Below, in pieces: positions 2,883-63,160 of a DNA stretch of 64,000 nt. The translations under genes and the position numbers were made by a program. Origin of the DNA: Eledone cirrhosa (lineage: Eukaryota); NCBI GenBank assembly GCA_964016885.1, contig OZ024742.1:253518001-253582000 (forward strand). Reading direction: 5' to 3'. Within the stretch, counting starts at the first letter, position 1; each line of letters begins with the position of its first letter. The notes beneath the pieces were generated by a model. The model was given only the letters and a program-made list of their open reading frames with translations. It did no database searches and was not told the DNA's origin.

Positions 2883-4037
2883 TTAAACTAGCCACCTCAT
2901 TTCGCTTCTCTCGGATCGATTGTTTATTTGCGGTGTCAGGCGTTTGATAAAAAGCGCTTCCTTGATACGTAACGTGCCGACGTTTCTTTCAGTTGCTAGA
3001 ATTGTGACAATGGGCCTTCCGTCTTTGTTTCCGCATTTGTCTATGTGTTTCCGGAAAGACGAGGCCCTGGTTTTAGTGTGTTCCTTGATCCGGATGTGCA
3101 AAGGTCGGATTGTGCTACCTATATAGTATTGGTTGCACCTGTCACATTCTATCTTATACACAACGTATGTGCGTAGGCAACAGTTTGCATGGCGTATCGG
3201 GCAGTCTCTGACTGAGCACGCGTCAGTAGATTTCCCGGGTTTCCTGGAGAGGCATCTTCGCAGGGAGGGGCCCGAGTGGGCCAGGTGGATGTCGAGGCCC
3301 TCCCTCCGTATAGCCTTGCGGATAGCGTTGGTGGTATTCTCGCCCAGGTGTAGTATTTTAAGGAAGCACTTGCTTTGGGTGCCTCTCTGTCTCTTGTGTC
3401 TGGTGTTTCCTACTCTGTCTGTGAGCGAGGTAGGGTACCCGTTCGTCTCCAGCACCTCGAGGAATCGCTTGGTATGAGTGACACCACTCGCGGGATCGCT
3501 GCATATGTTTTTGATTCGCGCGATCTCGTTTGTGATGTATCCTCTTTTGGCACTGTTAGGGAGGGCGAACTTGTAGTGAACGAACAGGTCCCTGCAGGCT
3601 GCCTTTCGGTAGAAGTTGCAGTGGATCCTTTCCTGTTCCGTGATGTTGATTCGGAAGTCGAGGAGGGCAAGTGACCCGTCTTCGTTGGGGTGCTCAACAC
3701 TGAAGTCAATGTTCTCGTCCGTGTTGTTGAACGTCTCATAGATTCTGTTCGCCGTGTCTTGGGAAGATGTGAGGATGAGGATATCGTCCACGTACCTTGA
3801 GAAAAAGGCGACGGCGTTGGAGTGACAGGCGTTGAGTGCCTTGCGCTCGAGGTTGTCCATGTAAGAGATCGCTAGCACACCCGACAGACTTGATCCCATG
3901 GGCAATCCCGAGGTTTGTTGGTATGTTTGGTTCAGGAATCCGAAGTAGGTGTTGTCGACGACGATGGATAGGAGTTGGTGGATGTCAGTGGTGGTGAGCC
4001 CGAAGCAGTGTAGGTCGGTGGATTGGACGCGTTCCAT
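2883..4037 (-). CDS. PLE polyprotein C-terminal part: RT core/thumb + GIY-YIG endonuclease
   Basis: Motifs QQTSGLPMGSSLS, RYVDD, FYRK, VVYKIEC..YYIGST..RIKEH..EALFI..PQIN. Confidence 0.9.
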   Translation of the reverse strand: MERVQSTDLHCFGLTTTDIHQLLSIVVDNTYFGFLNQTYQQTSGLPMGSSLSGVLAISYMDNLERKALNACHSNAVAFFSRYVDDILILTSSQDTANRIYETFNNTDENIDFSVEHPNEDGSLALLDFRINITEQERIHCNFYRKAACRDLFVHYKFALPNSAKRGYITNEIARIKNICSDPASGVTHTKRFLEVLETNGYPTSLTDRVGNTRHKRQRGTQSKCFLKILHLGENTTNAIRKAIRREGLDIHLAHSGPSLRRCLSRKPGKSTDACSVRDCPIRHANCCLRTYVVYKIECDRCNQYYIGSTIRPLHIRIKEHTKTRASSFRKHIDKCGNKDGRPIVTILATERNVGTLRIKEALFIKRLTPQINNRSERSEMRWLV

Positions 4038-4600
4038 CAGTATATTGACGGCCGGGAGTGCCGGGACCGAGGTGTAGAGCGACTACATCAAGGCTGAAGG
4101 CATATCTGTTATTCCTTCTGGTGTCGGGATCCATTTGATGCAGGCGCTTCAACACCTCCGCGGAGCTGTTAACGTGTCCCGGCAAGGTGTCTAAGATGGG
4201 TTTGAGTATTCTGGCTAGGAGCCATGAAATTTTGTAGAGTGGTCCCTCCACGCTCGATACAATGGGCCTGATCTTCAGGTCGGGTCCCTGTTTGTGTGTT
4301 TTCACGAGGTGGTAGAAGGCGGGTAGTCTGCTGTTCCTCGTGAGGAGGTTGTATCTCAGCTTCTTCGAGAGCTTCCGCCGGTCGCAGATGTTGGTCCAGG
4401 CGGCGTTGATGTGCTCTTCTATCTGCGCGGGAGTGATTCCCGTGACCTGGGAGTAGAGGTTGTCATCGTCAAGGTGTTGGAGGGCCAGGGTGTTGTAGGC
4501 CTCTCTGCTGATGACGCAGAAATCTTTTCCTTTGTCGGAGGGGAGGTAGATGAGGTTCTTCGATTTTAGGTTGGAGAGAGTAGTGAGTTGAGATTTGGTG
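3985..4600 (-). pseudogene. PLE RT N-terminal part (upstream frame)
   Basis: YLPSDKG..FYHLVKTHK..IRPIVSSVEGPLYKIS..AFSLDVVAL; frameshift near 4070. Confidence 0.85.
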
Positions 4601-4813
4601 AGGTTATGTGTTGTGCGTGTGTGTGTGTTTGTGAAGTATATCCGAGATGGAGTGTTTTAGCCTGATGAGTTTAGTGTCGAGTTCGTGGTTGGTGGGTGGG
4701 GGGTGGAGTGGGTTGTCGGGGTGGTAAGTGGGGAACTTGGGGTGGGTTGCGTGGGCGCTGTTATTTTCTGTGGCGCTGTTGATGGCGGTCGCCCATTTCT
4801 ACAATAATTATTA

Positions 4814-8201: not shown

Positions 8202-10306
8202 TGGGAGAAAGACAGTCTCCCCCACATCGACCCAATAGAGGGACCAGCAGTGTTAGTCGAAGGTAGTATAATAAGTAAGGCAATCAAAGATATGAAGACG
8301 GGGAAGGCGGCTGGGCCTTCGGAAATAGTTGCTGAGATGCTGAAAGCCTCTGGAACGGTGGGACACACCATGGTCACCCAGATAGTAAACCAAGTCATAC
8401 AGAATGGGGTTGTTCCGAAGGACTGGCGTAGCAGCATCATCGTTAACTGTTACAAGGGTAAAGGAGACGCCCTAGATAGGAGTAACTATAGAGGCATTAA
8501 ATTAATCGACCAGGTCATGAAGGTCACGGAAAAAGTAATAGCGCAACTAATCAGAGAGAATTGATCTAGATGAAATGCAGTTCGGGTTTGTGTCAGGCAA
8601 AAGTAACACAGACGCTCTTTTCATTGTACGACAACTACAGGAGAAGTACCTAGCTAAAAGTAAACCCCTATACTTAGCTTTTGTCGACTTGGAGAAAGCC
8701 TTCGACAGAGTCCCCCGTTCCATTATCTGGTGGGCTCTTAGAAAACTAGGTGTTGACGAATGGCTTGTGAGAGCTATACAAGCCATGTATAAAGAAACAG
8801 TCAGCAAGGTTAGAATTAACAACGAATATAGTGAAGAGTTTAGCGTAAAAGTTGGTGTCCATCAGGGCTCTGTTCTTAGCCCCCTACTATTTATTATTGC
8901 CCTTCAGGCTATAACAGAGGAGTTCAAGACCGGCTGCCCATGGGAACTCCTATACGCAGATGATCTAACGCTCATAGCTGAATCAATGGCCAAGCTAGAG
9001 AAGAAATTCCAAACATGGAAGCACGGCCTAGAATCAAAAGGCCTTAAAATTAACCTGGCTAAGACTAAAGTTCTAGTTTGTAGGAAAGAAAATAAGGCGC
9101 CAGTCCCTTCCGGGAAATGGCCATGCTCAGTGTGTAGGAAAGGCGTAGGTAGAAACTCCATTTTATGTCCCAAATGCAAAGTATGGGTGCATAAAATATG
9201 TAGTGGGATCACAGGTAAGCTAACTAAGAACATAGATTTTACATGTGGCCGGTGCTCTGGTGCAATAAGTAGCAGCAAGTGCCCACAAAATACTAGCTCT
9301 ATCAATTGCGCAGAGGGTTCTATAGAAATAGTGAACAGCTTCCATTACCTGGGTGACAAAATCAGCAGTGGGGGAGGGTGCTCTGAAAGTACAGTAGCTA
9401 GAGTCAGAACTAGATGGAAAAAGTTCAGAGAGCTTATACCACTATTATCCGCTAAAGGGTTCTCCCTAAAAATGAAAGGCAGGTTGTATGATGCCTGCAT
9501 ACGAACAGCAATGTTGCATGGCAGTGAGACCTGGGCATTGTGTGCAGAGGATATACGCAGACTAGAGAGGAACGAAGCTTGCATGCTCCGCTGGATGTGT
9601 AATAGTAATATACGTGAACGGCAAAGCATAAACGAACTAAGGAAAAAATTAGAAATAAGAGGGATCAGATGTTGTTTACTCGAGAGAAGTCTACGTTGGT
9701 ATGGTCACGTGATGCGCATGAAAGACGACAGCTGTATAACAAAGTGCAGGGCAATAAAGATAGACGGTAGCCACGGAGTAGGCAGACCCAGAAAAACCTG
9801 GGACGAGCTGATAAATTCCGACCTCACACACTTACATCTCTCCAAGACAATGTCACTGGACCGAGACCTTTGGCGGTACTCAGTAATAGAGAAGACCCAC
9901 CTTACCTAAATACAAAGTAAAACCTACTACAGTCAGTAGGCATCTCTAACAAAATACACCCCCGTCCCACCACCCCCAGCCCATCCACACCGCCCCTTTT
10001 AATCTAAAGTTATGTTGGTGCCACAACATCCAGGCCGAAACAAATGAGATCGTGTAGGTGTCACGACAAAAAAACACACAGTCCACGCTGTAATGTGGCT
10101 GTGTAGGCAACACGGTAAAAACCTCCCAGCCCCACACTGTAAATGTGGTTGGTGTTAGGAAGGGCATCCAGCTGTAGAAAACCCGCCAGACAGTCCTATG
10201 CGAGCAATGACAACCACTCTTGCCTCAAGTGGGAAAACTCCCGTACAAACCCATGCAAGCGTGGAACATGGACGTTAAACGATGATTATGATGATGATGA
10301 TGATGA
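8202..10306 (+). mobile_element. RTE-clade LINE, 5'-truncated, young copy 1
   Basis: RT ORF segments 8250-8564 and 8575-9909, 3'UTR and (GAT)n tail; begins inside a (TA)n tract. Confidence 0.95.
8575..9909 (+). CDS. RTE reverse transcriptase with inserted PHD-type zinc finger
   Basis: QFGF, FVDLEKAFDRV, GVHQGSVLSPLLF, LYADD, C4HC3 CSVC..CPKC..H..C..CGRC, FHYLG, LRWYGHVMR, GRPRKTW. Confidence 0.93.
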   Translation: MQFGFVSGKSNTDALFIVRQLQEKYLAKSKPLYLAFVDLEKAFDRVPRSIIWWALRKLGVDEWLVRAIQAMYKETVSKVRINNEYSEEFSVKVGVHQGSVLSPLLFIIALQAITEEFKTGCPWELLYADDLTLIAESMAKLEKKFQTWKHGLESKGLKINLAKTKVLVCRKENKAPVPSGKWPCSVCRKGVGRNSILCPKCKVWVHKICSGITGKLTKNIDFTCGRCSGAISSSKCPQNTSSINCAEGSIEIVNSFHYLGDKISSGGGCSESTVARVRTRWKKFRELIPLLSAKGFSLKMKGRLYDACIRTAMLHGSETWALCAEDIRRLERNEACMLRWMCNSNIRERQSINELRKKLEIRGIRCCLLERSLRWYGHVMRMKDDSCITKCRAIKIDGSHGVGRPRKTWDELINSDLTHLHLSKTMSLDRDLWRYSVIEKTHLT

Positions 10307-19900: not shown

Positions 19901-20375
19901 TATTACAGGATGTTAAGAGTTAATTCGAAATACAGTCTAACGAGGGTGACTAACTCGTTTGAACTTCAAAGGAGAAAAACTAGACATAAATTTCTAAATA
20001 TCAGAAAAAAATCACTTTAACACCTGGTACGAAGAGAATATTGATTAACCTCCCCCAGATTCCAAAAGAAAATGGAAAATAAATGATCATAAGAAATATA
20101 AAACGAGAGACTTCACTCATTAAGAAATGTGCCTTCTATCCATAAAGGTATCTCGGAATGTTCACACGTGGGAAAAATGTCAATTAAAACTGAAAGAAAA
20201 ATTCTGATCAAATCATTCATTCATATATTTTCCCTTTTATCCTTCAGTCTCATTATCCTTTCAGTTTCTCTTTATCACACACACACACACAGAAGATGTT
20301 CATAGATACATATACGGATTTAATTCAATATATCATATGTCTCTCTCTCTCTTTTTCCATATATATAAATATATA

Positions 20376-20484
20376 TAGAATAGAATGAAACGAAATTTCA
20401 TTTCTCACTCTTAGTACGGCGCTTACTTAAATGTAAGTATGTATGTATACGTACATACATATATGTATACAAACGTACAGTAGC

Positions 20485-20545
<61 letters not shown>

Positions 20546-21000
20546 CAGGCACACATATATATATATATATATACATACAGGCACACATATATATATGCAC
20601 GTATCAGTTTACCGAACATTTATTATAATGATTTTATTATAAACATTTATTAGCCTGATTTACGCCGTACAGTGTTTAGGCAACCACGTCACCTTTTTGT
20701 TCAACACTGACACAGGAACGATGTACTAGTTTCAAGCTTGTTAGCTATCGTCAGCACCGTATACCTTTCTGCCAGATGGTTGAACGTCCGAAAGTATATA
20801 CTTACCTTATGAAAATTAACGGCTGAGCAGCCTAATTTGCATATCGAGTGAGTTCAGTCGGCCAGCCGCATCGAAAACGATAAATAGAATAGAATGAAAT
20901 GAAATTTCATTTCTCACTCTTAGTACGGCACTTACTTAAATGTAAGTATGTATGTATACGTACATACATATATGTATACAGACGTACAGTAGCATGTATA
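20376..21000 (-). mobile_element. Retrozyme-like HHR tandem unit (family A), about 1.2 units
   Basis: Period about 509 bp (GAAATTTCATTTCTCAC at 20392 and 20901); non-coding; contains an HHR. Confidence 0.8.
20718..20760 (-). ncRNA. Type I hammerhead ribozyme (family A)
   Basis: ACGGUG-CUGACGA-UAGCU AACA AGCUU-GAAA-CUAG-UA-CAUCGU. Confidence 0.9.
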
Positions 21001-21096
21001 TATATATATATTCGTTTGTTTACAAACGAACAAAGCGAACATTATGATAAATGTTCGGTAAACTGATACGTGCATATATATGTGTGTGCCTGTATG

Positions 21097-21163
<67 letters not shown>

Positions 21164-21395
21164 GCTACTGTAGTCTGTATACATATATGTATGTACGTAT
21201 ACATACATACTTACATTTAAGTAAGTGCCGTACTAAGAGTGAGAAATGAAATTTCGTTTCATTCTATTCCATTTATCGTTTTCGGTGCGCCTGGCCGACT
21301 GAACTCACTCGATATGCAAATTAGGCTGCTCAGCCGTTAATTTTCATAAGGAAAGTATATACTTTCGGACGTTCAACCATCTGGCAGAAAGGTAT

Positions 21396-21438
21396 ACGGT
21401 GCTGACGATAGCTAACAAGCTTGAAACTAGTACATCGT
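21396..21438 (+). ncRNA. Type I hammerhead ribozyme (family A)
   Basis: Stem I ACGGUG/CAUCGU, core CUGACGA, stem II AGCU/AGCU, GAAA, palindromic ACUAGU, predicted cleavage after GUA at 21432. Confidence 0.92.
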
Positions 21439-21568
21439 TCTTGTGTCAGTGTTGAACAAAAAGGTGACGTGGTTGCCTAAACACTGTACGGCGTAAATCA
21501 GGCTGTTCGTTTGTTTACAAACGAACAAAGCGAACATTATAATAAACGTTCGGTAAACTGATACGTGC

Positions 21569-21599
<31 letters not shown>

Positions 21600-21600
21600 C

Positions 21601-21650
<50 letters not shown>

Positions 21651-21797
21651 CTTAAAATACTGGAGCGTGTTGGAGATAAACACCCTCTTCGTATTATAGA
21701 AATGACAGTAAAAGGTATAGCTCAATGTAATTAAACAGAGCCGAAGAATTATGAAAATAAAACAGAGAAGCCTTCAATACATCAAAAGTCTTTATTA

Positions 21798-21835
21798 GCC
21801 AACAATATTTCGTCCTATTAAGGACTCATCAGGGC
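21798..21835 (-). ncRNA. Type I hammerhead ribozyme (family B)
   Basis: GCC-CUGAUGA-GUCCU UAAU AGGAC-GAAA-UAUUG-UU-GGC. Confidence 0.88.
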
Positions 21836-23821
21836 AATCAAAACTACAAGAAGCACTATCGGCCAATACAACCCGAAAACTCCGAAGAATATGGAGTGTA
21901 CATACACTAAAGTATTGGAAGATTATGGGTAAAAATATATAATAAAAATCACTAAAGAGGTGGATAACATTTTGAACCATATTACAAATATAGTCCAAAG
22001 CAAAACACTAGAGCTAAACAAAGGTGGTTATATAGAGCGGGAATTATAGTACTATATGTAATACAATATAATATAATATAATATACTTGTAACAATATTA
22101 AAATTAAAATTAAAAGCACAATATACATATGTATATATATACACACACGTACGCACATATACATATACATCAATACACATTTCCATCATTAACAGCACAA
22201 ATTAAACCTTATTAAGAGTTTAAATATAAATAAGCATAATAGGAATAAAAATAAAAATAATATGTATATCTAATATACAGTATAACATGAAGTAATGAAA
22301 TGATTAAAAGTAACACATATAATATATAATAAACTATATAATTATATAATATATAATATAATATAATAGATAATCTCCGGTTAATTTACACAAACAATAT
22401 AGATGTGACAATAACACTATAATAATAATATAATAATATATAATATATAATGGCATGTAAGTTAACAAATCAATTCATATAGAGTTACAGAGCAGGTGAG
22501 AAAAAAAAATATAAATTGTACAATACCCAAAATTATGATGGTACAAAAATATAAATATCTTACAGGATATATAAAATTTACCATATCATAATAGTACATA
22601 AAATCATCAGTAAGTAATAAGGATCAATAGTACATTTACAAAGAGTTGAATAACAACTTCAATATAAAATAATGAACATAATATAATATATAATTACTTA
22701 TATTTACAAGGTTGGTAAACAGACACATATGTGAATGAGTGAATAAGAGCCAGACAGAAAATACTATGCACAGTAGTTTTAATAAATAAATAAATAAAAT
22801 CGACCGGAAATCAAAAAACAAAAACAAAAGTATTTACTTAGGTCTCACATGCAGTTAAGTAAAAACTTATGAAACAACCCCGATAAATGACTAGAAAACC
22901 CTATTTGATAAATTAATATTGAAAATATTTAAAATACTTAATAAGGCAATACAATATTAGCTATGGTTTAAGTAATCAAAATCCCTAAACATTAATATAT
23001 CACTATAAATATATATAGAAAGGAATGAAATATTCTACTATCATTTACATAACGATATCATAATTAAGGGTAAATTTTATATATCCTGTAAGATATTTAT
23101 ATTTTTGTACCATCATAATTTTGGGTATTGTACAATTTATATTTTTTTTCTCACCTGCTCTGTAACTCTATATGAATTGATTTGTTAACTTACATGCCAT
23201 TATATATTATATATTATTATATTATTATTATAGTGTTATTGTGACATCTATATTGTTTGTGTAAATTAACCGGAGATTATCTATTATATTATATTATATA
23301 TTATATAATTATATAGTTTATTATATATTATATGTGTTACTTTTAATCATTTCATTACTTCATGTTATACTGTATATTAGATATACATATTATTTTTATT
23401 TTTATTCCTATTATGCTTATTTATATTTAAACTCTTAATAAGGTTTAATTTGTGCTGTTAATGATGGAAATGTGTATTGATGTATATGTATATGTGCGTA
23501 CGTATGTGTATATATATACATATGTATATTGTGCCTTTTAATTTTAATTTTAATTTTAATATTGTTACAATTATATTATATTATATTATATTGTATTACA
23601 TATAGTACTATAATTCCCGCTCTATATAACCACCTTTGTTTAGCTCTAGTGTTTTGCTTTGGACTATATTTGTAATATGGTTCAAAATGTTATCCACCTC
23701 CTTAGTGATTTTTATTATATATTTTTACCCATAATCTTCCAATACTTTAGTGTATGTACACTCCATATTCTTCGGAGTTTTCGGCTTGTATTGGCCGATA
23801 GTGCTTCTTGTAGTTTTGATT

Positions 23822-23859
23822 GCCCTGATGAGTCCTTAATAGGACGAAACATTGTTGGC
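23822..23859 (+). ncRNA. Type I hammerhead ribozyme (family B)
   Basis: GCC-CUGAUGA-GUCCU UAAU AGGAC-GAAA-CAUUG-UU-GGC; stem I extendable via AGUUUUGAUU/AAUAAAGACU. Confidence 0.9.
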
Positions 23860-23904
23860 TAATAAAGACTTTTGATGTATTGAAGGCTTCTTTGTTTTAT
23901 TTTC

Positions 23905-23965
<61 letters not shown>

Positions 23966-24197
23966 GCTACTGTACGTCTGTATACATATATGTATGTACA
24001 TATACATACATACTTACATTTAAGTAAGTGCCGTACTAAGAGTGAGAAATGAAATTTCGTTTCATTCTATTCCATTTATCGTTTTCGGTGCGCCTGGCTG
24101 ACTGAACTCACTCGATATGCAAATCAGGCTGCTCAGCCGTTAATTTTCATAAGGAAATATATACTTTCGGACGTTCAACCATCTGGCAGAAAGGTAT

Positions 24198-24240
24198 ACG
24201 GTGCTGACGATAGCTAACAAGCTTGAAACTAGTACATCGT
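24198..24240 (+). ncRNA. Type I hammerhead ribozyme (family A)
   Basis: Identical to 21396-21438. Confidence 0.92.
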
Positions 24241-24393
24241 TCCTGTGTCAGTGTTGAACAAAAAGGTGACGTGGTTGCCTAAACACTGTACGGCGTAAAT
24301 CAGGCTGTTCGTTTGTTTACAAACGAACAAAGCGAACATTATAATAAATGTTCGGTAACCTGATACGTGCATATATATATATATGTGTGCCTG

Positions 24394-24434
<41 letters not shown>

Positions 24435-24594
24435 GCTACTGTACGTCTGTATACATATATGTATGTACGTATACATACATACTTAAATATATATAAATAT
24501 ATATATATAAATATATATAAATATATATAAATATATATAAATATTTATAAATATATATATATATATAAACAGATATAAATATATATAAATATAA

Positions 24595-25472
24595 ATGGAA
24601 TAGAATGAAACGAAATTTCATTTCTCACTCTTAGTACGGCACTTACTTAAATGTAAGTATGTATGTATACGTACATACATATATGTATACAGACGTAGAG
24701 TAGTATGTATATATATACATACATGCACACATATATATATATGCACGTATCGGTTTACCGAACATTTATTATAATGCTCGGTTTGTTTGTTTGTAAACAA
24801 ACAAACAGCCCGAATCACGCCGTACAGTGTTTAGGCAACCACGTCACCTTTTTGTTCAACACTGACACAGGAATGATGTACTAGTTTCAAGCTTATTAGC
24901 TATCGTCAGCATCGTATACCTTCCTGCCAGATGGTTGAACGTCTGAAAGCATATACTTTCCTTATGTATATTAATGGCTGAGCAGCCTAATTTGCATATC
25001 GAGTGAGTTCAGTCGGCCGGGCACACCGAAAACGACAAATGGAATAGAATGAAACGAAATTCCATTTCTCACTCTTAGTACGGCATTTACTTAAATGTAA
25101 GTATGTATGTATGTATAGGTACATACATATATGTATACAGACGTACAGTAGTATGTATATATATACATACATGCACACATATATATATGCACGTATCGGT
25201 TTACCGAACATTTATTATAATTGTTTCTACTTTTGGCACAAGGCCAGCAATTACCCAGTGCATTACTGGTACTTTATTTTATCGACCCCGTAAGGATGAA
25301 AGGCAAAGTCAACCTCGGCGGGATTTGAACTCAGATCGTTAAGGGACGTAACTATGCTGGCCCTACCGATACTGCCAATCCACCGAACATTTATTATAAT
25401 GCTCGGTTTGTTTGTTTGTAAACAAACAAGTTTTCGGTGTGCCCGGCTGACTGAACTCACTCGATATGCAAA
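24595..25472 (-). mobile_element. Family A retrozyme-like array, more diverged, interrupted by a SINE at ~25220-25383
   Basis: Same unit in reverse orientation with several substitutions. Confidence 0.8.
24873..24915 (-). ncRNA. Type I hammerhead ribozyme (family A variant)
   Basis: ACGAUG-CUGACGA-UAGCU AAUA AGCUU-GAAA-CUAG-UA-CAUCAU; core unchanged. Confidence 0.88.
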
Positions 25473-45375: not shown

Positions 45376-46958
45376 TTGAAAAAGGTTGTGATGGGGACTG
45401 CATAGTTAACTCCTACTTAAGCAGGGATAATCTTCTTAAAATTCTTATATTTTTTATGCATTCTCAATTCAATAGGAATGGTGATGAAGATGATGATGAT
45501 GTCTGTTTTAGTAATACAGCTAAATTCACTTTGTTACCTGTTGCAATTAACTCAGATGATCATAACAATGAAACAACTCAAAGTAAGCACACAACTGACA
45601 AGCTTATTGGAAATAAATCATGAGAATTATAAATAAGTTATATTAAATACATTTCATAATATTTTTATCAGTTAGAATTAGATAAGTTGAATAATACACA
45701 CACATATGTACACATACATTAACACACATATATGTACATTGATATAAACACACAAATACATATGTACTTAAACACACATATTCATACACACATACATAAA
45801 CCCACATACATATACACACATATATATACAGACTCATAGATAAATACACACATACATATACACACTCATTCATAAACACATACATACATAAACACACACA
45901 TACAGTCACTAAATCAGTCGCTAAATTACTATATTTTCATTTTCTTAGGTAGATATTCTGGATTTATTTATATTTCTTATTTCCTTTATTAAAATAGATA
46001 TTTTTTAAAAACTTTGATTCATATAATTATAATGGTAGTTAAATTGAAAATTATTGGGAAGAATAACAAAACTTGTATTTATGTTGAGAGTAATATAAAT
46101 ATCGATAATTTTGCTAAATTGCAGAAAAGCAATTACGATGTAGTCATGATGTATTTTCAGATGATAGTTATGGATGTTTAAATGTGTTTTCACCTGAGAA
46201 GTTCTTTCAAACTGTTGATGTTTTGCTTGCTATGAAATACACCAAGAATTATTTGCAAACTGTTTTCTCTAGCCTGTGGCATTCAAGACATTTTGGGGAA
46301 CCCATTGTTGTTATCTCACTTTACCAATGTATCAGGTGTTGTTTATGAGACTGTTTGGTTATTCTAGCACTTTGGCCATGCTATCACTCACAACAATGTT
46401 ACCTATCTGTTGGGTTGCCTAAAAAAATATTAGAAGTAAACTCCAGAGCTCCTTGTAGTATGTGATTGAGTGTGTGTTTTCTCACACTTAGGTTTTACCT
46501 CTTATTTTCTTAATGATTTGGGTGGAGCTCGTCAAATGGATCTGAGGAAACAATGTTTCCATTTGTCTTTCCAATTGCTAATACTATCTACTGGTCACAA
46601 ATCCAGACAGAAGGAGCAACCTGAAATAAAGTGCCTTGCTCAGGGACATAATGCATCATCCGGTCCAGGAATCGAACTCACAACCTCATGATTGTGAATC
46701 CAATTCGCTAGCCACTCAGCCATGCACCTTCACTTTCTTATATAAATTGTGTTGAATTATTTATATACATGCTATTTAAGTAAATAACTTAACAGGCATT
46801 TATAATTTCTTACTCCACTCAAAGTGCAATTTTCAAACAAAGTAGACAGACTTCACTTAAAAATAAAGTATAAATCCAATATCTATTGTGTAGTAGATTG
46901 TTCTACTATACAGCCAAGTCTTTTTTCTTACTGATTCAGTATTTGGGGACTATAGTAT

Positions 46959-49783
46959 TTTAGCAGGATGGTAGAATCAGTGGTCGCCACTTTAACAGGG
47001 TAGATGATTGATGGTCGTGAGTTGCCAGTGAGGTAAGTGATAGTATCCTCGTTGGATTATCTTGTTGACATAGACGTGAGGGAAGGTCCCTCGATCTATT
47101 TACCATCTATTTACAATATTCCTTTCGTCAGGTCGCCAATTCTAGCAGCATGGGTTATATATGTTATTGAGACACGAGTAACATAATAATGATTTCAACA
47201 GCAGTAATTAGAGATGAAATGTATGTTTATTTTTGATGTAGCACAAACAATGTTTGTTAACTTATATGGTTGAAGTTACAGATAAAAAAGAGGTTACAAA
47301 AGGGAATGTGCCATTGCGCCGTTAAGCCGGCGAGGCTAGGGTGCAAGATCTCACCATTACATTATGCGTGTTTCTGGCTTGAAGTTTCCGGTACAAGAGA
47401 AAGATTCTTCAAATCTCCACGGGGAATTTCTTTCCCAGGGCACGTAGGGATACATCCTCTTCTACTGGCGCTGATTGGCTGAACTGAGCCAAATCACGCA
47501 TAGAGAATGTATGTGAGCCCGCGGAATGTAGGTCACTACATCACCTCCGACCAGATTTTCAGCCGAAAATCGATAACGAAGAAACCAAGGACCCACATAT
47601 TATTGAATCAGCAAGAACAAATGGTGAAAGAGCACATCAGTGAACAAATAATTGAGCAGAAAGATTCATGCAAGAACAAAAAAAAATTAGGCGCGACGGG
47701 CCGTGTTGAGCCGCTGTCAAATGACTAGCTGTTTTGTAGTTTAAACGAGACCCTCAAGGGCCTACCAGAAAACAGATAAAGTCTGATATGGGCGAAGTTG
47801 CTGTTCTTGCATTAAATGTTAATGGTAAGCATTGTACCAGTAGCTGTGAACGAAGCTATTATGGTAGTTTACCAGTGCTGGCGAGAAAATGATGGCCCCC
47901 AGATATATTGTCGAATGTGCTGTGGAGCCAGGAAAAAATGGCTGGTTGCTTTGTAAAGAAAAAAAAAAGCAAGTTTAATCTGTAGGTGGGCTGCAGTGTA
48001 AATTCCATAATTCGGGCGAATCCACAGAAGTGGCCGAAATGCTGACAAGTCCAGTTCAATTTGTTGCTTTCCCAGCGAGTCGGGCAAAAACAACAAGATG
48101 GATGGCCGTCATGGACGATCAGTGTGCAACGAGATGCGAAGCTGTTTGAGTTCAGCTGCAATTAGTATTCTCGTGTTGCGGTGCCTGTTTGAATCCAGTG
48201 GATTAAGCTCTGTGAGCTGCTAGCATGTGACAGCATCTCAACCAGGTGAAAAGGGACTCGCAGAATATTACGTTTGAAGAACATATACCAAGAACAACAT
48301 GTTGGTGTGTGATAAAAAAAATGTGTGCATATGCAGGCATGTAATACAGCAAAGAATGTGAATGAACAAAAACCATTAGCAAGCAAATAGCAAAAGAGCA
48401 CAAAACAAGTAAATGCATTCTACAAAGAAATATGTGAATGTAAGAAACTGATAATTCAAAGTCAATCTAAGGGAGCAGAGAAATTGCTCAATAAGTTCAA
48501 AGTTTTTCAAAGTCAAATAGTTCACACATCACTAGTATCCAGACACTAGTTATATCTGAAAACTGAAAAAGAAGTTTGTTAATGCCGTTAGGGGTTAGAT
48601 GTATGGTGTTTTTGAGAGTTTTCGGGGCCATTCTACCGTCTTGTCACCTTGTGTGACATAAGGTTTTGTTGTTAAAGCAAAGTCAATGAATCTTCTGTAG
48701 AGTAGCAGTCAAGCGTTGAAGAACCCAGAGTCCAACATGGCAGCCACGTCTGACGCCATAATGGTGAGAAAACTACTGTCTCAATTTCTCGAGTCCCTGT
48801 GGTAACGAGACAGAAGGTATGGTGGTTGCGTCGGTAAAGTTACAAGCCGTTTTGCAATTTCCGATGTGTGGTGGTTTGCGTCGGTAAGGCTATGAAGCTG
48901 CCACTCACTATTCCCTGTTTTGGTCAGTGGCTAAACAATGTTGTCGCTGCTGCTGCTGTCGTTGTTGATCGTAGACAGAACTTGTCGGTAGCCATTTTGA
49001 AATTTCTTCGTGGCGAAAAGTTTTTGAAATACTGCCAATTTTTCAAAAATCTTAAAAGGAATATTTTTATTTTTCGCAAGTTGCGAAAAGGTTGGCAACG
49101 TGGCAATAAAAGTTCAACTGAATAAAAAAGAAGGGCTGCGTTAAATTCTTACGTCGGTCACCACTTTACCAGGATTGAAGTTGAATAGTCGTGGTCGCCA
49201 CTTTAGCAGGATGGTAGAATCAGTGGTTGCCACTTTAACAGGGTAGATGATTGATGGTCGTGAGTTGCCAGTGTGGTAAGTGATAGTATCCTCGTTGGAT
49301 TATCTTGTTGACATAGACGTGAGGGAAGGTCCCTCGATCTATTTACCATCTATTTACAATATTCCTTTCGTCAGGTCGCCAATTCCAGCAGCATGGGTTA
49401 TATATGTTATTGAGACACGAGTAACATAATAATGATTTCAACAGCAGTAATTAGAGATGAAATGTATGTTTATTTTTGATGTAGCACAAACAATGTTTGT
49501 TAACTTATATGGTTGAAGTTACAGATAAAAAAGAGGTTACAAAAGGGAATGTGCCATTGCGCCGTTAAGCTGGCGAGGCTAGGGTGCAAGATCTCACCAT
49601 TACATTATGCGTGTTGCTGGCTTGAAGTTTCCGGTACAAGAGAAAGATTCTTCAAATCTTCGCGGAGAATTTCTTTCCCAGGGCGCGTAGGGATACATCC
49701 TCTTCTACTGGCGCTGATTGGCTGAACTGAGCCAAATCACGCATAGAGAATGTATGTGAGCCCGCGGAATGTAGGTCACTACA
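46959..49783 (-). mobile_element. Non-autonomous Gypsy-type (CsRN1-like) LTR retrotransposon
   Basis: 582-bp LTRs 46959-47540 and 49202-49783 (about 9 differences by eye); 4-bp TSD GTAT; purine-rich GGTCGGAGGTGA before TGT; PBS motifs; decayed gag knuckle/protease (DNISGGHHFLASTG). Confidence 0.85.
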
Positions 49784-49811
49784 GTATCAATTTTAACTCC
49801 TTGAAGATAAT

Positions 49812-50087
49812 ATCTATTTAATGACCAACCCCATTAATTCCAACCTCATCAAAGTATTATATGTTTAATGGACAGCCCCATTAATTCCAGCCTTATCAGA
49901 GTTTTATATGTTTAATGGCCAACCCCATTAATTCAAACCTTATCAAAGTATTATATGTTTAATGGGAAATCCCATCAATTCCAATTTTATCAAAGTATTA
50001 TATGTTTAATGGCCAACCCCATTAATTCCAGCCCTATCAAAGTATTATATGTTTAACGACCAACCCCATTAATTCCAGCCTTATCAA
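49812..50087. repeat. 47-bp minisatellite, about 6 units
   Basis: TTATCAAAGTATTATATGTTTAATGGCCAACCCCATTAATTCCAGCC. Confidence 0.9.
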
Positions 50088-50267
50088 AAAATCTAAAAAT
50101 GATCGACTTTTACATGAGTATACATGGTGCATACTATATTCTTAATGAGACATAAGTGAATTAGCAGGACTAGATAAGAAACAAACAAGGAAAGAAATGC
50201 ACCTATTTAGATTACATGGCCTAAAAGTAGATATATCAAATGTACCAGAAAAAAGAATAGGTGTAGG

Positions 50268-50540
50268 TATATTATATTTACCAGAAAAACAGATATAGAC
50301 ATATAATATTTATCAGAAAAACAGATACAGATATATCATATTTATCAGAAAAGCAGATATATATAGTATATTAACCAGAAAAATAGTGATAGATATATTA
50401 TATTAACCAGAAAAACAGATATATTATATTTATCAGAGAAACAGATATTGATATAATATATTGACCAGAAAAACAGTTATAGATATATTATATTTACCAG
50501 AAAAAAACAGACATAGATATATTATATTTACCAGAAGAAT
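50268..50540. repeat. ~29-bp minisatellite, about 9 units
   Basis: ATATATTATATTTACCAGAAAAACAGATATAG. Confidence 0.88.
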
Positions 50541-51663: not shown

Positions 51664-53049
51664 AAGAAGAAGAAGAAATTCTATAGCTCTTCTACTGATA
51701 TAGAGCTCATTCATCATTTGTTGATTATTATGCTACACATATAGCCCCACCCCCAGCAACACAGGCATACGCACACATCTACTATATAAATGGCAAATTT
51801 CTGTCTGTCTGTGTATCTGTGTATCTGTGTATAACCAGTTGGCGCCTACACTAGTGATCTGATCCTGCTGAAACTTTACACACATGTTAAGCTAATATTC
51901 AGAAACAAGACTGGCTAATTGGATTTCAATAAAACTCAATAATGGAACCCTGGGGACATCTTTATAATGGAGGAGGAAAGAGAAGACGTTTCAGTGAAAG
52001 AGGGGGAAGAGGAGATACTACTACTGTATGTTAAACCCTCCCTCCTAATACTCAGTCCTCCAAAACGAGGCAACAACTTATTAGAAATATACATAAAGAA
52101 ATTTAAAACAAAGCCGACTACAATCTAATTTATATATATATATATATCAACTAGAAATTGATTGACATATATATATATCTAAAATAAACATATGAAACAA
52201 TCACAGGGAATAATTTGTAAAAGTGTGTAAGCACACATAGCCAGGTAGGTAACTAATTAAAGTTTATCTAGAACTTTAAAAATAGATACCTTATAAATTG
52301 ATTAATCTTCCTTTATATATTTCATTAAAGAAATATATTTCACCATTAATCGATCGGTAAACCACAGTAGCCAAATCTCGGATTTTCAACAAGGGAGAAG
52401 ATCTAACTATCTGTGTTTACACAACAAATTCAAATCAGCAAATGACTAGTAGCTCGTGTTGCATTTTTCAAAAATACACACACCGTACCAGCTTCATCCC
52501 AGTGGCGTGAATAGGGTTATCAACAACTAGAAATAGCAGCCGAGTCCTTTCAACTGAGTTAGCTCTACAATTAAGGGGCCGTGTATATATCCAAAATTAA
52601 ATTACGGGTGTCATGTCAGAGAGACATGCGCCATATCCACTGTAAAATATGCTCCTAGATTCCAATGAATAGATCCGAGCACTTTATATCAACTAGATAA
52701 TGATTGACATATATATATATATATATAAAATAAACATATGCAACAATCACAGGTAATAATTTGTAAAAGTGTGTAAGCACACATAGCCAGGTAGGTAACT
52801 AATTAAAGTTTAACTAGAACTTTAAAAATAGATACCTTATAAATTGATTAATCTTCCTTTATACATTTCATTAAAGAAATATATTTCACCATTAATCGAT
52901 CGGTAAACCACAGTACCCAAATCCAGGATTTTCAACATTGGAATCTTGGAGCATATTCTACAGTGGATATGGTGCATGTCTCTCTAACATGACACCCTTA
53001 ATTTAATTTTGGATATATACACGGCCCCTTAATTGTAGAGCTAACTCAG

Positions 53050-53679
53050 TTGAAGGGACTCGGATTTTGGAATAGAATAGAAAGAACTATGAATAAGGCT
53101 AATAGATTAAACTCATGGTATGATAGCAATAAATACCAGAGTGTAATGTCCATCGATACAACCCCTAGAGGTGAATTAGCTTACAAATTTAGAAGGGCCC
53201 TAGATAAACATAAACTCAATATTAAGATAGTAGGAAGACCAGATACCTCCATAAAAACACTTATTAGCAAGACATACCCTTTTCAAAGACCTCCCTGTAT
53301 AGATAAGAAATGTATAATCTGTAAATTAAGCCCCCATATTAACTGTAAAACTAGAAATGTAGTATATAGCATAAGATGTACTGAAGGACAATGTAGAGAT
53401 AAAAATATAGTGTACATAGGTGAGACAGCTCGTAGTATAGGGGAACGGATAAATGAACACTGGCGAGACCTTCAAGATAGTAAAGAATCATCTGTACTCT
53501 ACCAACATGTTAAAATAGAACATAAGGGTAAATTAGAGAACATAGAAATAAAAATAGAATCTACACACAGAAAAGACGCAATGTTTAGACAAATCACAGA
53601 AGCAATAAACATAAATGAACTCCAACCAAAATTAAATAGAAAACATGAGTGGAACAGCAACATCACAACTTACAATTAA
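53050..53679 (+). CDS. 5'-truncated PLE ORF: linker zinc finger + GIY-YIG endonuclease
   Basis: CIDKKCIIC..CKTRNVVYSIRC..C..VYIGETARSIGERINEH..RQITEAI..PKLNRKHEW. Confidence 0.88.
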   Translation: MKGLGFWNRIERTMNKANRLNSWYDSNKYQSVMSIDTTPRGELAYKFRRALDKHKLNIKIVGRPDTSIKTLISKTYPFQRPPCIDKKCIICKLSPHINCKTRNVVYSIRCTEGQCRDKNIVYIGETARSIGERINEHWRDLQDSKESSVLYQHVKIEHKGKLENIEIKIESTHRKDAMFRQITEAININELQPKLNRKHEWNSNITTYN

Positions 53680-59739: not shown

Positions 59740-60048
59740 CATCATCATCATCAACGTTTAACGTCCGTGTTCCACGCTTGCATGGGTTTGGACGGGGGTA
59801 GTCCCACTTGAGGCAAGAGTGATTGTCTTGCTCGCATAGGACTGTCTGGCAGGTTTTCTACAGTTGGATGCCCTTCCTAACACCAACCACATTTACAGTG
59901 TGGGTCTGGGAGGTTTTTACCGTGTTGCCTACACGGCCACATTACAGCGTGGACTGTGTGTTTTTTTGTCGTGACACCTACACGATCCCATTTGTTTCGG
60001 CCTGGATGGTGTGGCACCAACACAACTTTACATAGAACGGGGTGGCGT
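59740..60048 (-). mobile_element. RTE-tail/SINE element matching the tail of RTE copy 1
   Basis: Reverse complement matches ~10000-10300. Confidence 0.85.
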
Positions 60049-60062
60049 GATATATATATATT

Positions 60063-60146
<84 letters not shown>

Positions 60147-60157
60147 TATATACATAT

Positions 60158-62078
60158 ATCATCATCATCATCATCATTTTACGTCTGCTTTTCCCTGCTT
60201 GCACGGGTGGGACGGGAACTGATTCTGGCTTGATTTCTACAGCTGGATGCCCTTCCTAACACCAACCTCATTTACAGTGAGTGCTGGGTGCTTTTTTGCT
60301 GTGGCACCTCCACGACCACTTTGCAGTGGAATGATACCCCAGTTTGGATGTTGTGGCACCAACATAACTTTACATTGAAAGGGGCGGTGTGGATGGGGTG
60401 GGGGTGGTGGGACGGGGGTGTATTTTGTTAGAGATGCCTACTGACTGTAGTAGGTTTTACTTTGTATTTAGGTAAGGCGGGTCTTCTCTATTACTGAGTA
60501 CCGCCAAAGGTCTCGGTCCAGTGACATTGTCTTGGTGAGGTGTAAGTGTGTGAGGTAGGAATTTATCAGCTCGTCCCAGGTTTTTCTGGGTCTGCCTATT
60601 CCGTGGCTACCGTCTATCTTTATTGCCCTGCACTTTGTTATACAGCTATCGTCCTTCATGCGCATCACGTGACCATACCAACGTAGCCTTCTCTCGAGTA
60701 AACAACATCTGATCCCTCTTATTTTTAATTTTTTCCTTAGTTCATTTATGCTTTGCCGTTCACGTATATCACTATTACACATCCAGCGGAGCATGCAAGC
60801 TTCGTTTCTCTCTAGTCTGCGTATATCCTCTGCACACAATGCCCAGGTCTCACTGCCATGCAACATTGCTGTTTGTATGCAGGCATCGTACAACCTGCCT
60901 TTCATTTTTAGGGAGAACCCTTTAGCGGCTAATAGTGGTATGAGCTCTGAACTTTTTCCACCCAGTTCTGACTCTAGCTACTGTACTTTCAGAGCACCCT
61001 CCCCCACTGCTGATTTTGTCACCCAGGTAACGGAAGCTGTCCACTATTTCTATAGAACACTCTGCGCAATTGAAAGAGCTAGTATTTTTGGGGCACTTGC
61101 TGCTACTTATTGCCCCAGAACACCGGCCACATGTAAAATCTATGTTCTTAGTTAGCTTACCTGTGATCCCACTACATCTTTTATGCACCCAAACTTTGCA
61201 TTTGGGACACAAAATGGAGTTTCTACCTACGCCTTTCCTACACTCTGAGCATGGCCACTTCCCGGAGGGGACCGCCGCCTTATTTTCTTTCTTACAAACT
61301 AGAACTTTAGTCTTAGCCAGGTTAATTTTAAGGCCTTTTGATTCTAGACCGTGCTTCCATGTTTGGAATTTCTTCTCTAGCTCGGCCATTGATTCAGCTA
61401 TGAGCGTTAGATCATCTGCGTATAGGAGTTCCCATGGGCAGCCGGTCTTGAACTCCACTGTTATAGCCTGGAGGGCAATAATAAATAGTAAGGGGCTAAG
61501 AACAGAGCCCTGATGAACACCAACTTTTACACTAAACTCTTCACTATATTCGTTGTTAATTCTAACCTTGCTGACTGTTTCTTTATACATGGCTTGTATA
61601 GCTCTCACAAGCCATTCATCAACACCTAGTTTTCTAAGAGCCCACCAGATAATGGAACGGGGGACTCTGTCGAAGGCTTTCTCCAAGTCGACGAAAGCTA
61701 AGTATAGGGGTTTACTTTTAGCTAGGTACTTCTCCTGTAGTTGTCGTACAATGAAAAGAGCGTCTGTGATACTTTTTCCTGACACAAACCCGAACTGCAT
61801 TTCATCTAGATCAATTCGCTCTCTGATTAGTTGCGCTATTACTTTTTCCGTGACCTTCATGACCTGGTCGATTAATTTAATGCCTCTATAGTTACTCTTA
61901 TCTAGGGCATCTCCTTTACCCTTATAACAGTTAACGATGATGCTGCTACGCCAGTCCTTCGGAACAGCCCCATTCTGTATGACTTGGTTGACTATCCCGG
62001 TGACCATGGTGTGTCCCACCGTACCAGATGCCTTCAGCATCTCGGTAACTATTTCCGAAGGCCCAGCCGCCTTACCCG
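60158..62078 (-). mobile_element. RTE-clade LINE, 5'-truncated, young copy 2 (RT + PHD; frameshift near 60945)
   Basis: ORFs 60922-62040 and 60468-60905 nearly identical to copy 1; begins inside a (TA)n tract. Confidence 0.95.
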
Positions 62079-63160
62079 TATATATATATATATATAATAT
62101 ACATTTATTCTATGTATATATGCACATATGTATGCATTCATATGAATATATGTATATATAATATATATATATATATATATACATATGATGATAATGATGA
62201 TGATGTACATCATCATCATCATTACTATTCTATGTTTTACACTTATTTTCCATGCTTGCATGGGTTAGATGAGTTGTCACGTTCTGAAACTAGACAGGCA
62301 GGCCAGACAACAGTATCGTGCTCATGCATTCAACTTTGGCATGGTTTCTATGGCTGGATGCTCTTTATAATGCCACTTCACAGCATGTTCTGAGTACATT
62401 TTTTCACGGCACCACTACTATTACCTGGCAGGGTGACCTGGGTGGGGTTTTTCTTTTTCATAGCATCAACACTATTGCTTTCCAGTGTGGACTGGGCGAC
62501 CGTACTACTACATTTTCACATTAGGGCTCTTTATCCAAAGACAGGCTGGGAGGAGAGGGTAGGGATTGGGGAGATGAGAGAAAAGTATAGACTGTCTGGT
62601 CTGATACTAGCCCATGGGGGAGTTTGGGGTTTAAAGGAAGTGAATGACATCTCGTGATATTGTGGGGTGAACATGGCTTTCCATGTTGGTATGTTTGTGC
62701 GAGGCAGTGGGGAATTCAGGGATAAATTTGGCAGTGCGAGTTTTTGGAAAGAGCAAGAAGGGAGAATCAATGGTTCATAGGGTAGTTTTGGAAAGAAGGA
62801 GAGAAAGAGTGGGCAAGCAGCATCGGGCAGTACAGTGAAGATACATCCACCTTTGGATAAAAGTAAATGGAGATGGAGGGGAGACTATGTTGGAGGCTAT
62901 GCTCAGAGAAGGGGAGATTATATATGCAAGGGGATTACTAGCAAGGAGTAGGTCATGGACAGGGCTGCCTAAATGTTGTTTCCAACTTTCTGTTTTTTAC
63001 AACAATCTTCAACATGTTCATTTAATCCTTGCTTGTGTAGAGATGATGGGAGCTTTCTGTGGTATTGGCATACCACCACCTGGCTAGTGCTTGTATCATT
63101 TCCACCATGAGATATAGCTTTTTGAGGTCAGCTTTAACCAATTTGTCCTATTGCCCAGTT

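Follow-up and report, generated by a model that had tools for sequence, protein, structure and literature searches.

Organization of the locus

The 64,000-nucleotide stretch of DNA analysed here, referred to below as the window, carries on its minus strand a 2,825-bp LTR element without proteins, and an array of stacked junction modules straddles the boundary between its 5' LTR and the primer binding site (PBS). A repeat search recovered a long direct repeat with copies 2,243 bp apart, and the two LTRs, when aligned over their 582 bp, are 98.5% identical, the 9 differences being 7 transitions and 2 transversions. The element and its flanks are composed of the following features.

49784..49787, minus strand: target-site duplication (TSD) ATAC, upstream copy
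49202..49783, minus strand: 5' LTR, 582 bp, starts TGTAGTG and ends CCTGCTAAA
49509 and 49474, minus strand, within the 5' LTR: TATAA and AATAAA, respectively, consistent with a putative U3/R/U5 division
47541..49201, minus strand: internal region of 1,661 bp in which no coding remnant was detected
47541..47552, minus strand: polypurine tract (PPT)-like purine-rich 12-mer directly before the 3' LTR, with a putative function based on its position
46959..47540, minus strand: 3' LTR, 582 bp, starts TGTAGTG and ends CCTGCTAAA, the same module as in the 5' LTR
46955..46958, minus strand: target-site duplication ATAC, downstream copy

The LTR ends are TGT...AAA and depart from the TG...CA that is usual for LTRs. 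A 5-bp TSD with one mismatch is possible but is less simple than the 4-bp ATAC, and the purine content of the PPT-like 12-mer is only moderate. Pfam returned no family in any of the six frames of the 1,661-bp interior with stops read as X, and nothing at a meaningful E-value for nine short interior ORFs, while a phmmer search of one of the six interior frames against 1.84 billion proteins gave no hits. Additionally, ARAGORN found no tRNA genes in the element and Rfam gave no match above gathering score in 46000-50500. The locus has TSD-flanked direct LTRs, a PBS behind the 5' LTR, a PPT-like stretch, no coding capacity and dispersed copies, which are the characteristics of an LTR retrotransposon, and it is a young non-autonomous LTR element.

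Approximately 30 bp outside of the 5' LTR a 47-bp tandem array of 5.8 copies begins (49817-50088), and a 32-bp array comes next (50227-50536); the other flank is not satellite. Elsewhere in the window, inverted LINE-like copies that are 94-97% alike and encode a reverse transcriptase followed by a PHD finger occupy 8290-10207 and 59828-62109. A minus-strand region at 2883-4656 exhibits a reverse transcriptase along with a weak GIY-YIG match, and a second weak GIY-YIG ORF is present at 53002-53679, both of which we take to be Penelope-like. Nested inverted repeats at 20371-25132, with arms of 150-470 bp at 87-99% likeness and rich in AT microsatellites, are foldback- or MITE-like.

Five junction modules at the LTR boundary

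A preliminary description of this DNA had listed five TGG-starting motifs on the minus strand, and its positions and spacings are confirmed. These sites, at 49381, 49270, 49232, 49200 and 49163, are termed U0, U1, U2, U3 and U4, respectively. U1 through U4 are spaced by 38, 32 and 37 nt, with U0 180 nt away and off this 32-38-nt rhythm.

49364..49392, minus strand: U0, decayed module in the LTR; LTR-end-like GCTGCT(G/A)GAA, 1-nt spacer (T), apparent Arg-type PBS with a 2-nt insertion
49258..49278, minus strand: U1, weak PBS-like site in the LTR; TACCACA-C-TGGCAAC...
49223..49242, minus strand: U2, module in the LTR; CCTGTTAAA-G-TGGC(A/G)ACCAC; missing in some relatives
49189..49210, minus strand: U3, LTR end and PBS of this copy; CCTGCTAAA-G-TGGCGACCACGA; matches the tRNA-Arg PBS string over 12 nt
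49151..49173, minus strand: U4, module in the leader; CCTGGTAAA-G-TGGTGACCGACGT; tRNA-Trp/CsRn1 PBS if a 2-nt gap is allowed, alternatively an Arg copy that differs by three changes

U0, U1 and U2 are located inside both LTRs, with 3' LTR copies at 47138, 47027 and 46989 that the preliminary description had not included, while U3 begins one nucleotide past the LTR end and U4 resides in the leader. The module that recurs spans 18 nt, made up of the LTR end, a single spacer base and 8 nt from the start of the PBS. Among U2, U3 and U4 the modules agree at 15-17 of 18 positions, and U1 agrees with the module at 9-11 of 18. The motif CCTG(T/C/G)TAAAG does precede three of the sites, as had been described. 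The sequence TACCACA-C before 49270 is also present as described, but its reading as an LTR end is not supported since the ends of the element are AAA and 49270 is the weakest site.

With up to one mismatch allowed, the pattern CTGNTAAANTGGYRACC has four matches in the 64-kb window (three in the array and one in the 3' LTR copy) against a shuffle mean of 0.05, with none of 100 shuffles reaching four, an enrichment that is inflated because the pattern was derived from the same sites. The LTR-end-like pattern of U0 has two matches versus 0.38 expected and 7 of 100 shuffles reach two, which is weak when taken alone. The spacers between modules, which had been described as unique, do differ in length (20, 14 and 19 nt). 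They are not unrelated, however, as 10/21, 14/21 and 11/19 aligned columns are alike (48-67%), and the likeness between the U1 and U3 units is 76% along 46 nt with the spacer included. Considering the spacers alone, p is a borderline ~0.04 for the U1/U3 pair and 0.37 and 0.08 for the other two pairs. The modules are thus better kept than the spacers, indicating that conservation is concentrated on the functional signal, although this contrast is inflated by the modules having been chosen for their likeness. Tandem Repeats Finder reported no array at the junction modules. The predicted RNA fold of 49130-49420 is no better than that of shuffled sequence (z 0.57; 141 of 200 shuffles fold as well), and given this value pairing of CACTTACCA with U4 is not claimed.

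The stack is a set of LTR-end/PBS junctions of an LTR retroelement, an identification proposed earlier that is now supported by the LTR pair, the TSD and the 1-nt spacer. Both LTRs of this copy end at U3, which has an Arg-matching PBS and is the primer site of the copy.

Primer matches of the modules

The PBS strings used for comparison are human Arg and Trp sequences printed in papers, and may differ from those of the host tRNAs. One string is ambiguous between Arg and Trp in the available portion of PMC4724089 and is assigned to tRNA-Arg after GtRNAdb in that of PMC11905727; the human tRNA-Trp complement string is from an excerpt of bioRxiv 10.1101/400127. U3, at 49200, exhibits 12 contiguous matches to the human Arg string with a duplex energy of -23.8 kcal/mol, upholding the tRNA-Arg match that had been proposed. 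U0 pairs with the human Arg string as strongly as U3 does (-23.9 kcal/mol), but with a 2-nt bulge. For U2 the energy is -20.2 kcal/mol in the 3' LTR allele (46989, 10 contiguous matches) and -14.2 kcal/mol in the 5' allele, and U1 is the weakest site at -14.0 kcal/mol. By their likeness to the human string, U0, U2 and U3 would be Arg-type sites, with U1 probably a weak one.

The assignment of 49163 (U4) to tRNA-Trp, the primer of the CsRn1 clade, stands as a fit in which 13 nt agree with the human tRNA-Trp complement once a single 2-nt gap is allowed; for the 5 nt beyond the gap, p is ~0.005 against the element's own sequence. As a choice of primer it is only slightly better than Arg, since the duplex energies with the human strings (-19.7 kcal/mol for Trp versus -18.6 kcal/mol for Arg) are barely separated and U4 is derivable from U3 by three changes. 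A tRNA-Ser(GCT) match that had been suggested at ~49288 is rejected as chance-level, as the Ser-like 8-mer ATCCTCGT lacks a CCA complement and chance alone would give ~1.8 8-mers of this kind in 231 nt. The anticodon TCG for the Arg site and the label Ser(GCT) are presumed identities taken from the preliminary description. With Ser at chance level and three or four of the five sites apparently Arg-type, the claim that the array matches several different tRNAs is not borne out; at most two types, Arg and Trp, would be represented.

Copies of the family in public contigs

Nine public runs were listed, none with RNA data, and contigs of four of these (X1, X4, X5 and X6) were compared at a likeness cut-off of 80. 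X1 is from organism A, X5 from organism B and X6 from organism C; X1 could be the sample that the window derives from, and is left out as independent evidence. Over the element, contig depths in X1 sum to thousands versus 10-15 over its flanks, a value that is not a copy count, and this fits with the element being a dispersed multi-copy family. Depth in X1 is 4,829 at the last LTR bin (46960-47064) and 74 beyond it, indicating that a large part of the family extends as far as the U3 end. One X1 contig (record 1) spans the 3' junction without differences. There was no empty site among the contigs listed for the four runs, nor was a pile of ends reported.

Several contigs differ from the window within the array, with the array joints resting on single contigs, two of which have intervening sequence that is not given. 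A 670-bp X5 contig from organism B skips 49224-49254 and an X6 contig from organism C starts with a matching 12 letters as a loose end, from which it follows that the U2 module is absent in the contigs of both organisms B and C. For this 31-nt difference, loss in B and C would be simpler than gain in A, and a recent duplication in organism A was rejected since the segment and its neighbour are only ~70% alike, a much lower likeness than that between the species. An X1 contig with a depth of 5.2 skips 49191-49228, a gap compatible with the U2 unit of 32 nt having been lost in register and six letters lying between. Both of these array gaps lie between short direct repeats, of 6 nt in the 3' LTR allele and of 18-19 of 20 nt. 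In the main X4 contig the TGG of U2 is altered at 49230 and this accounts for all depth there, and at 49262 in U1 the C of the window is replaced in all four runs compared.

In at least three X1 and X4 contigs the match breaks off at 49172, and in one X4 contig, with a depth of 155, 49172 is joined to 49637. At a cut-off of 80, this one contig gives a hint that a sister family may have U4 and the leader in common but carry different sequence upstream of U4. Two differences lie outside of the array: the main X4 contig (depth 431) is without 31 nt at 49474-49504, between the TATA-like box and AATAAA of the LTR, and in the leader, where a 17-nt direct repeat occurs at 50-bp spacing (48826-48892), X1 and X4 variants differ around 48846-49016.

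Comparison with known elements

CsRn1-like Gypsy elements (CsRn1, PwRn1, AgCR) are described in the available text of PMC2582038 as having 4-bp TSDs, TGT...AAA or TGT...ATA ends and a tRNA-Trp PBS, and the clade is present in 9 of 12 cephalopod species examined according to an excerpt of PMC6238403. The window may itself be cephalopod, as its microsatellite content suggests. Our element resembles this clade in its 4-bp TSD, its TGT...AAA ends and a TGGTGACC... Trp-type site near the LTR end. It differs in being without gag/pol, in having an apparently Arg-type site at the LTR end with the gapped Trp-type site 37 nt downstream, and in having several junction copies. No coding remnant was found in the element to compare with the Gag CHCC motif or pol of the clade, and a helper element was not found. 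The element works like a CsRn1-type passenger and is a candidate member of the clade.

Among non-autonomous elements, the TRIM/LARD-type animal Helenus families (PMC10886601, in part) likewise have two LTRs, a PBS and a PPT without proteins, with a 4-bp TSD in animal Gypsy-dependent families and a primer type that varies among families. In contrast to TRIM and TRIMp3, our element is 2.8 kb versus a 1 kb limit and has no tRNA gene in its LTR. Culex cqUNK_4 is a 2,990-bp non-autonomous, Arg-primed element with a 4-bp TSD (PMC3286476, in part). The accessible portions of PMC10886601 and PMC3286476 do not describe stacked junction modules for the Helenus or cqUNK elements.

Extra primer sites have precedents elsewhere. 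In HIV-1 MAL-type isolates (PMC3185550, excerpt) a PBS-like sequence additional to the one indispensable PBS is tolerated, as it is here, but that sequence is one 23-nt partial copy located downstream. Drosophila Gypsy also has two tRNA-Lys sites of which the extra one is tolerated (PMC1635307, excerpt), but the second of these lies at the 3' end and is bound by a different region of that tRNA. Unlike in both of these cases, the copied unit here includes the LTR end and is found on both sides of the LTR boundary. A literature search on multiple or duplicated PBSs, or on stacked LTR-end and PBS modules in retrotransposons, returned nothing relevant, which does not imply absence from print as most subscription journals and Repbase Reports are outside of that search; PMC6407205 ('LTR extension') and PMC4139406 were set aside as irrelevant as precedents.

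For completeness, a metagenome scan for two tandem junctions gave eight loci, apparently three distinct sequences, none of the eight with a BLAST match to the element. They were rejected as relatives, being unrelated short tandem repeats in which AAAGTGGYRACC occurs by chance within units of 31, 42 and 27 bp (L002 at 2971-3075, also L003-L005, L007 and L008; L006; and L001). Two viral-contig scans gave no matches each.

Origin of the stacked junctions

In LTR reverse transcription, everything between the primer and the RNA's 5' terminus is copied into both new LTRs. Upstream modules therefore enter U5, because minus-strand strong-stop DNA copies all sequence 5' of the primer, and the earlier suggestion that priming further downstream would lengthen the LTR is mechanistically coherent. 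We consider there to be an even chance that the array consists of stacked, duplicated LTR-end/1-nt-spacer/PBS modules at the U5/leader boundary, that these are relic junctions with one probable Trp-to-Arg switch, and that they belong to a young non-autonomous Gypsy-type element with CsRn1-type ends. The combination of CsRn1-like TGT...AAA ends with a Trp PBS makes AAA-G-TGG a normal junction for the clade, and the CsRn1-type ends, the 4-bp TSD and the Trp fit of 49163 together make one primer switch plausible. U4 would then be the tRNA-Trp junction of the clade, bypassed and damaged after the arrival of an Arg junction upstream, either via local duplication or via a template switch with an Arg-primed relative. 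A helper element would reverse-transcribe the family from tRNA-Arg at U3, while U0 and U2 may be earlier Arg junctions that were absorbed into U5 once priming had moved to a downstream copy. A working module would have to supply the integrase end and the PBS together, and the extra modules would be tolerated relics or spares with no acquisition system involved. In Ty1 and Ty3 the PBS is inherited and not recopied from the tRNA (PMC7472051, excerpt), and with such inheritance selection is a likelier source than refreshing for the better match of U3. Several points count against relic junctions with a primer switch. Simple downstream growth leaves the presumed ancestral Trp site most downstream, so that a further event has to be assumed; the element has no coding remnant by which it could be linked to the CsRn1 clade; and the U4 duplex energies barely split Trp from Arg on human strings that may differ from those of the host.

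This last point favors a serious rival that we nevertheless consider unlikely, namely that slippage tandemly duplicated one Arg junction that then decayed like a minisatellite, with U4 a mutated Arg copy and no primer switch. U4 pairs with Arg almost as well as with Trp, the likeness of the U1 and U3 units extends through their spacer, the short direct repeats that flank both contig deletions are as slippage predicts, the TGG of U2 is altered in the main X4 contig, and HIV-1 MAL-type isolates have partial PBS duplications (PMC3185550, excerpt). However, slippage does not account for modules that are kept much better than their spacers, for a U0 that is off the rhythm of the others, or for the failure of Tandem Repeats Finder to detect an array here; moreover, the Trp fit of U4 is one event versus three and agrees with the clade-type LTR ends. 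The model of the preliminary description, in which U0, U2, U3 or U4 each prime with Arg or Trp to give LTRs of ~401, 550, 582 and 619 bp, is in our judgment improbable. It gains from each module pairing an LTR-end signal with a PBS at an identical 1-nt register, from the duplex strength of U2 in the 3' LTR allele, and from the contig breaks at 49172. The X1 contig that lacks a unit could also be explained by priming at one site with strand transfer at the next, and dual initiation is said, going by a reference title, to occur in two-PBS HIV vectors. Yet this copy ends at U3 in both LTRs, U0 and U4 have indels within their PBS, U2 is missing or altered in relatives, and the X1 depth indicates that much of the family reaches the U3 end. 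If several modules were live, a protein-less element could ride on two helper families. Its strongest form, a cassette of interchangeable LTR-end and PBS modules for Arg and Trp in which LTR length toggles with the primer and two differently primed helper families are utilized, is slightly more doubtful. Scarcely credible is a repeat-spacer system that acquires the 3' ends of different tRNAs as spacers. A conserved module with diverged spacers does have that appearance, but the tRNA-like part is the repeat and not the spacer, there would be at most two tRNA types, and the spacers are partly related to each other and, among the contigs listed, appear invariant across family copies except for whole-unit loss; nor is there a protein nearby, an Rfam match or a stable fold.

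Implications for primer change in LTR elements

The stacked junctions are an uncommon variation on known retrotransposon biology. Particular to this case are the presence of modules on both sides of the LTR boundary, their occurrence in a young multi-copy family, a number that varies between relatives and, possibly, two primer types. LTR and PBS annotation tools can misplace the boundary in such elements. If slippage alone is responsible, then the array is a tolerated quirk of one transposon family, whereas if interchangeable modules are in use then it would be a readable, dated record of a primer change in an LTR element. Primer changes among related families are known (PMC10886601, PMC12471100 and PMC7472051, each in part), and the mechanism of such changes in LTR elements is unknown in detail according to the available text of PMC10886601. 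Old and new junction modules side by side would provide a concrete route, in which a whole LTR-end and PBS junction is duplicated or recombined and the unused one decays, and this route for primer change is testable in one genome assembly.
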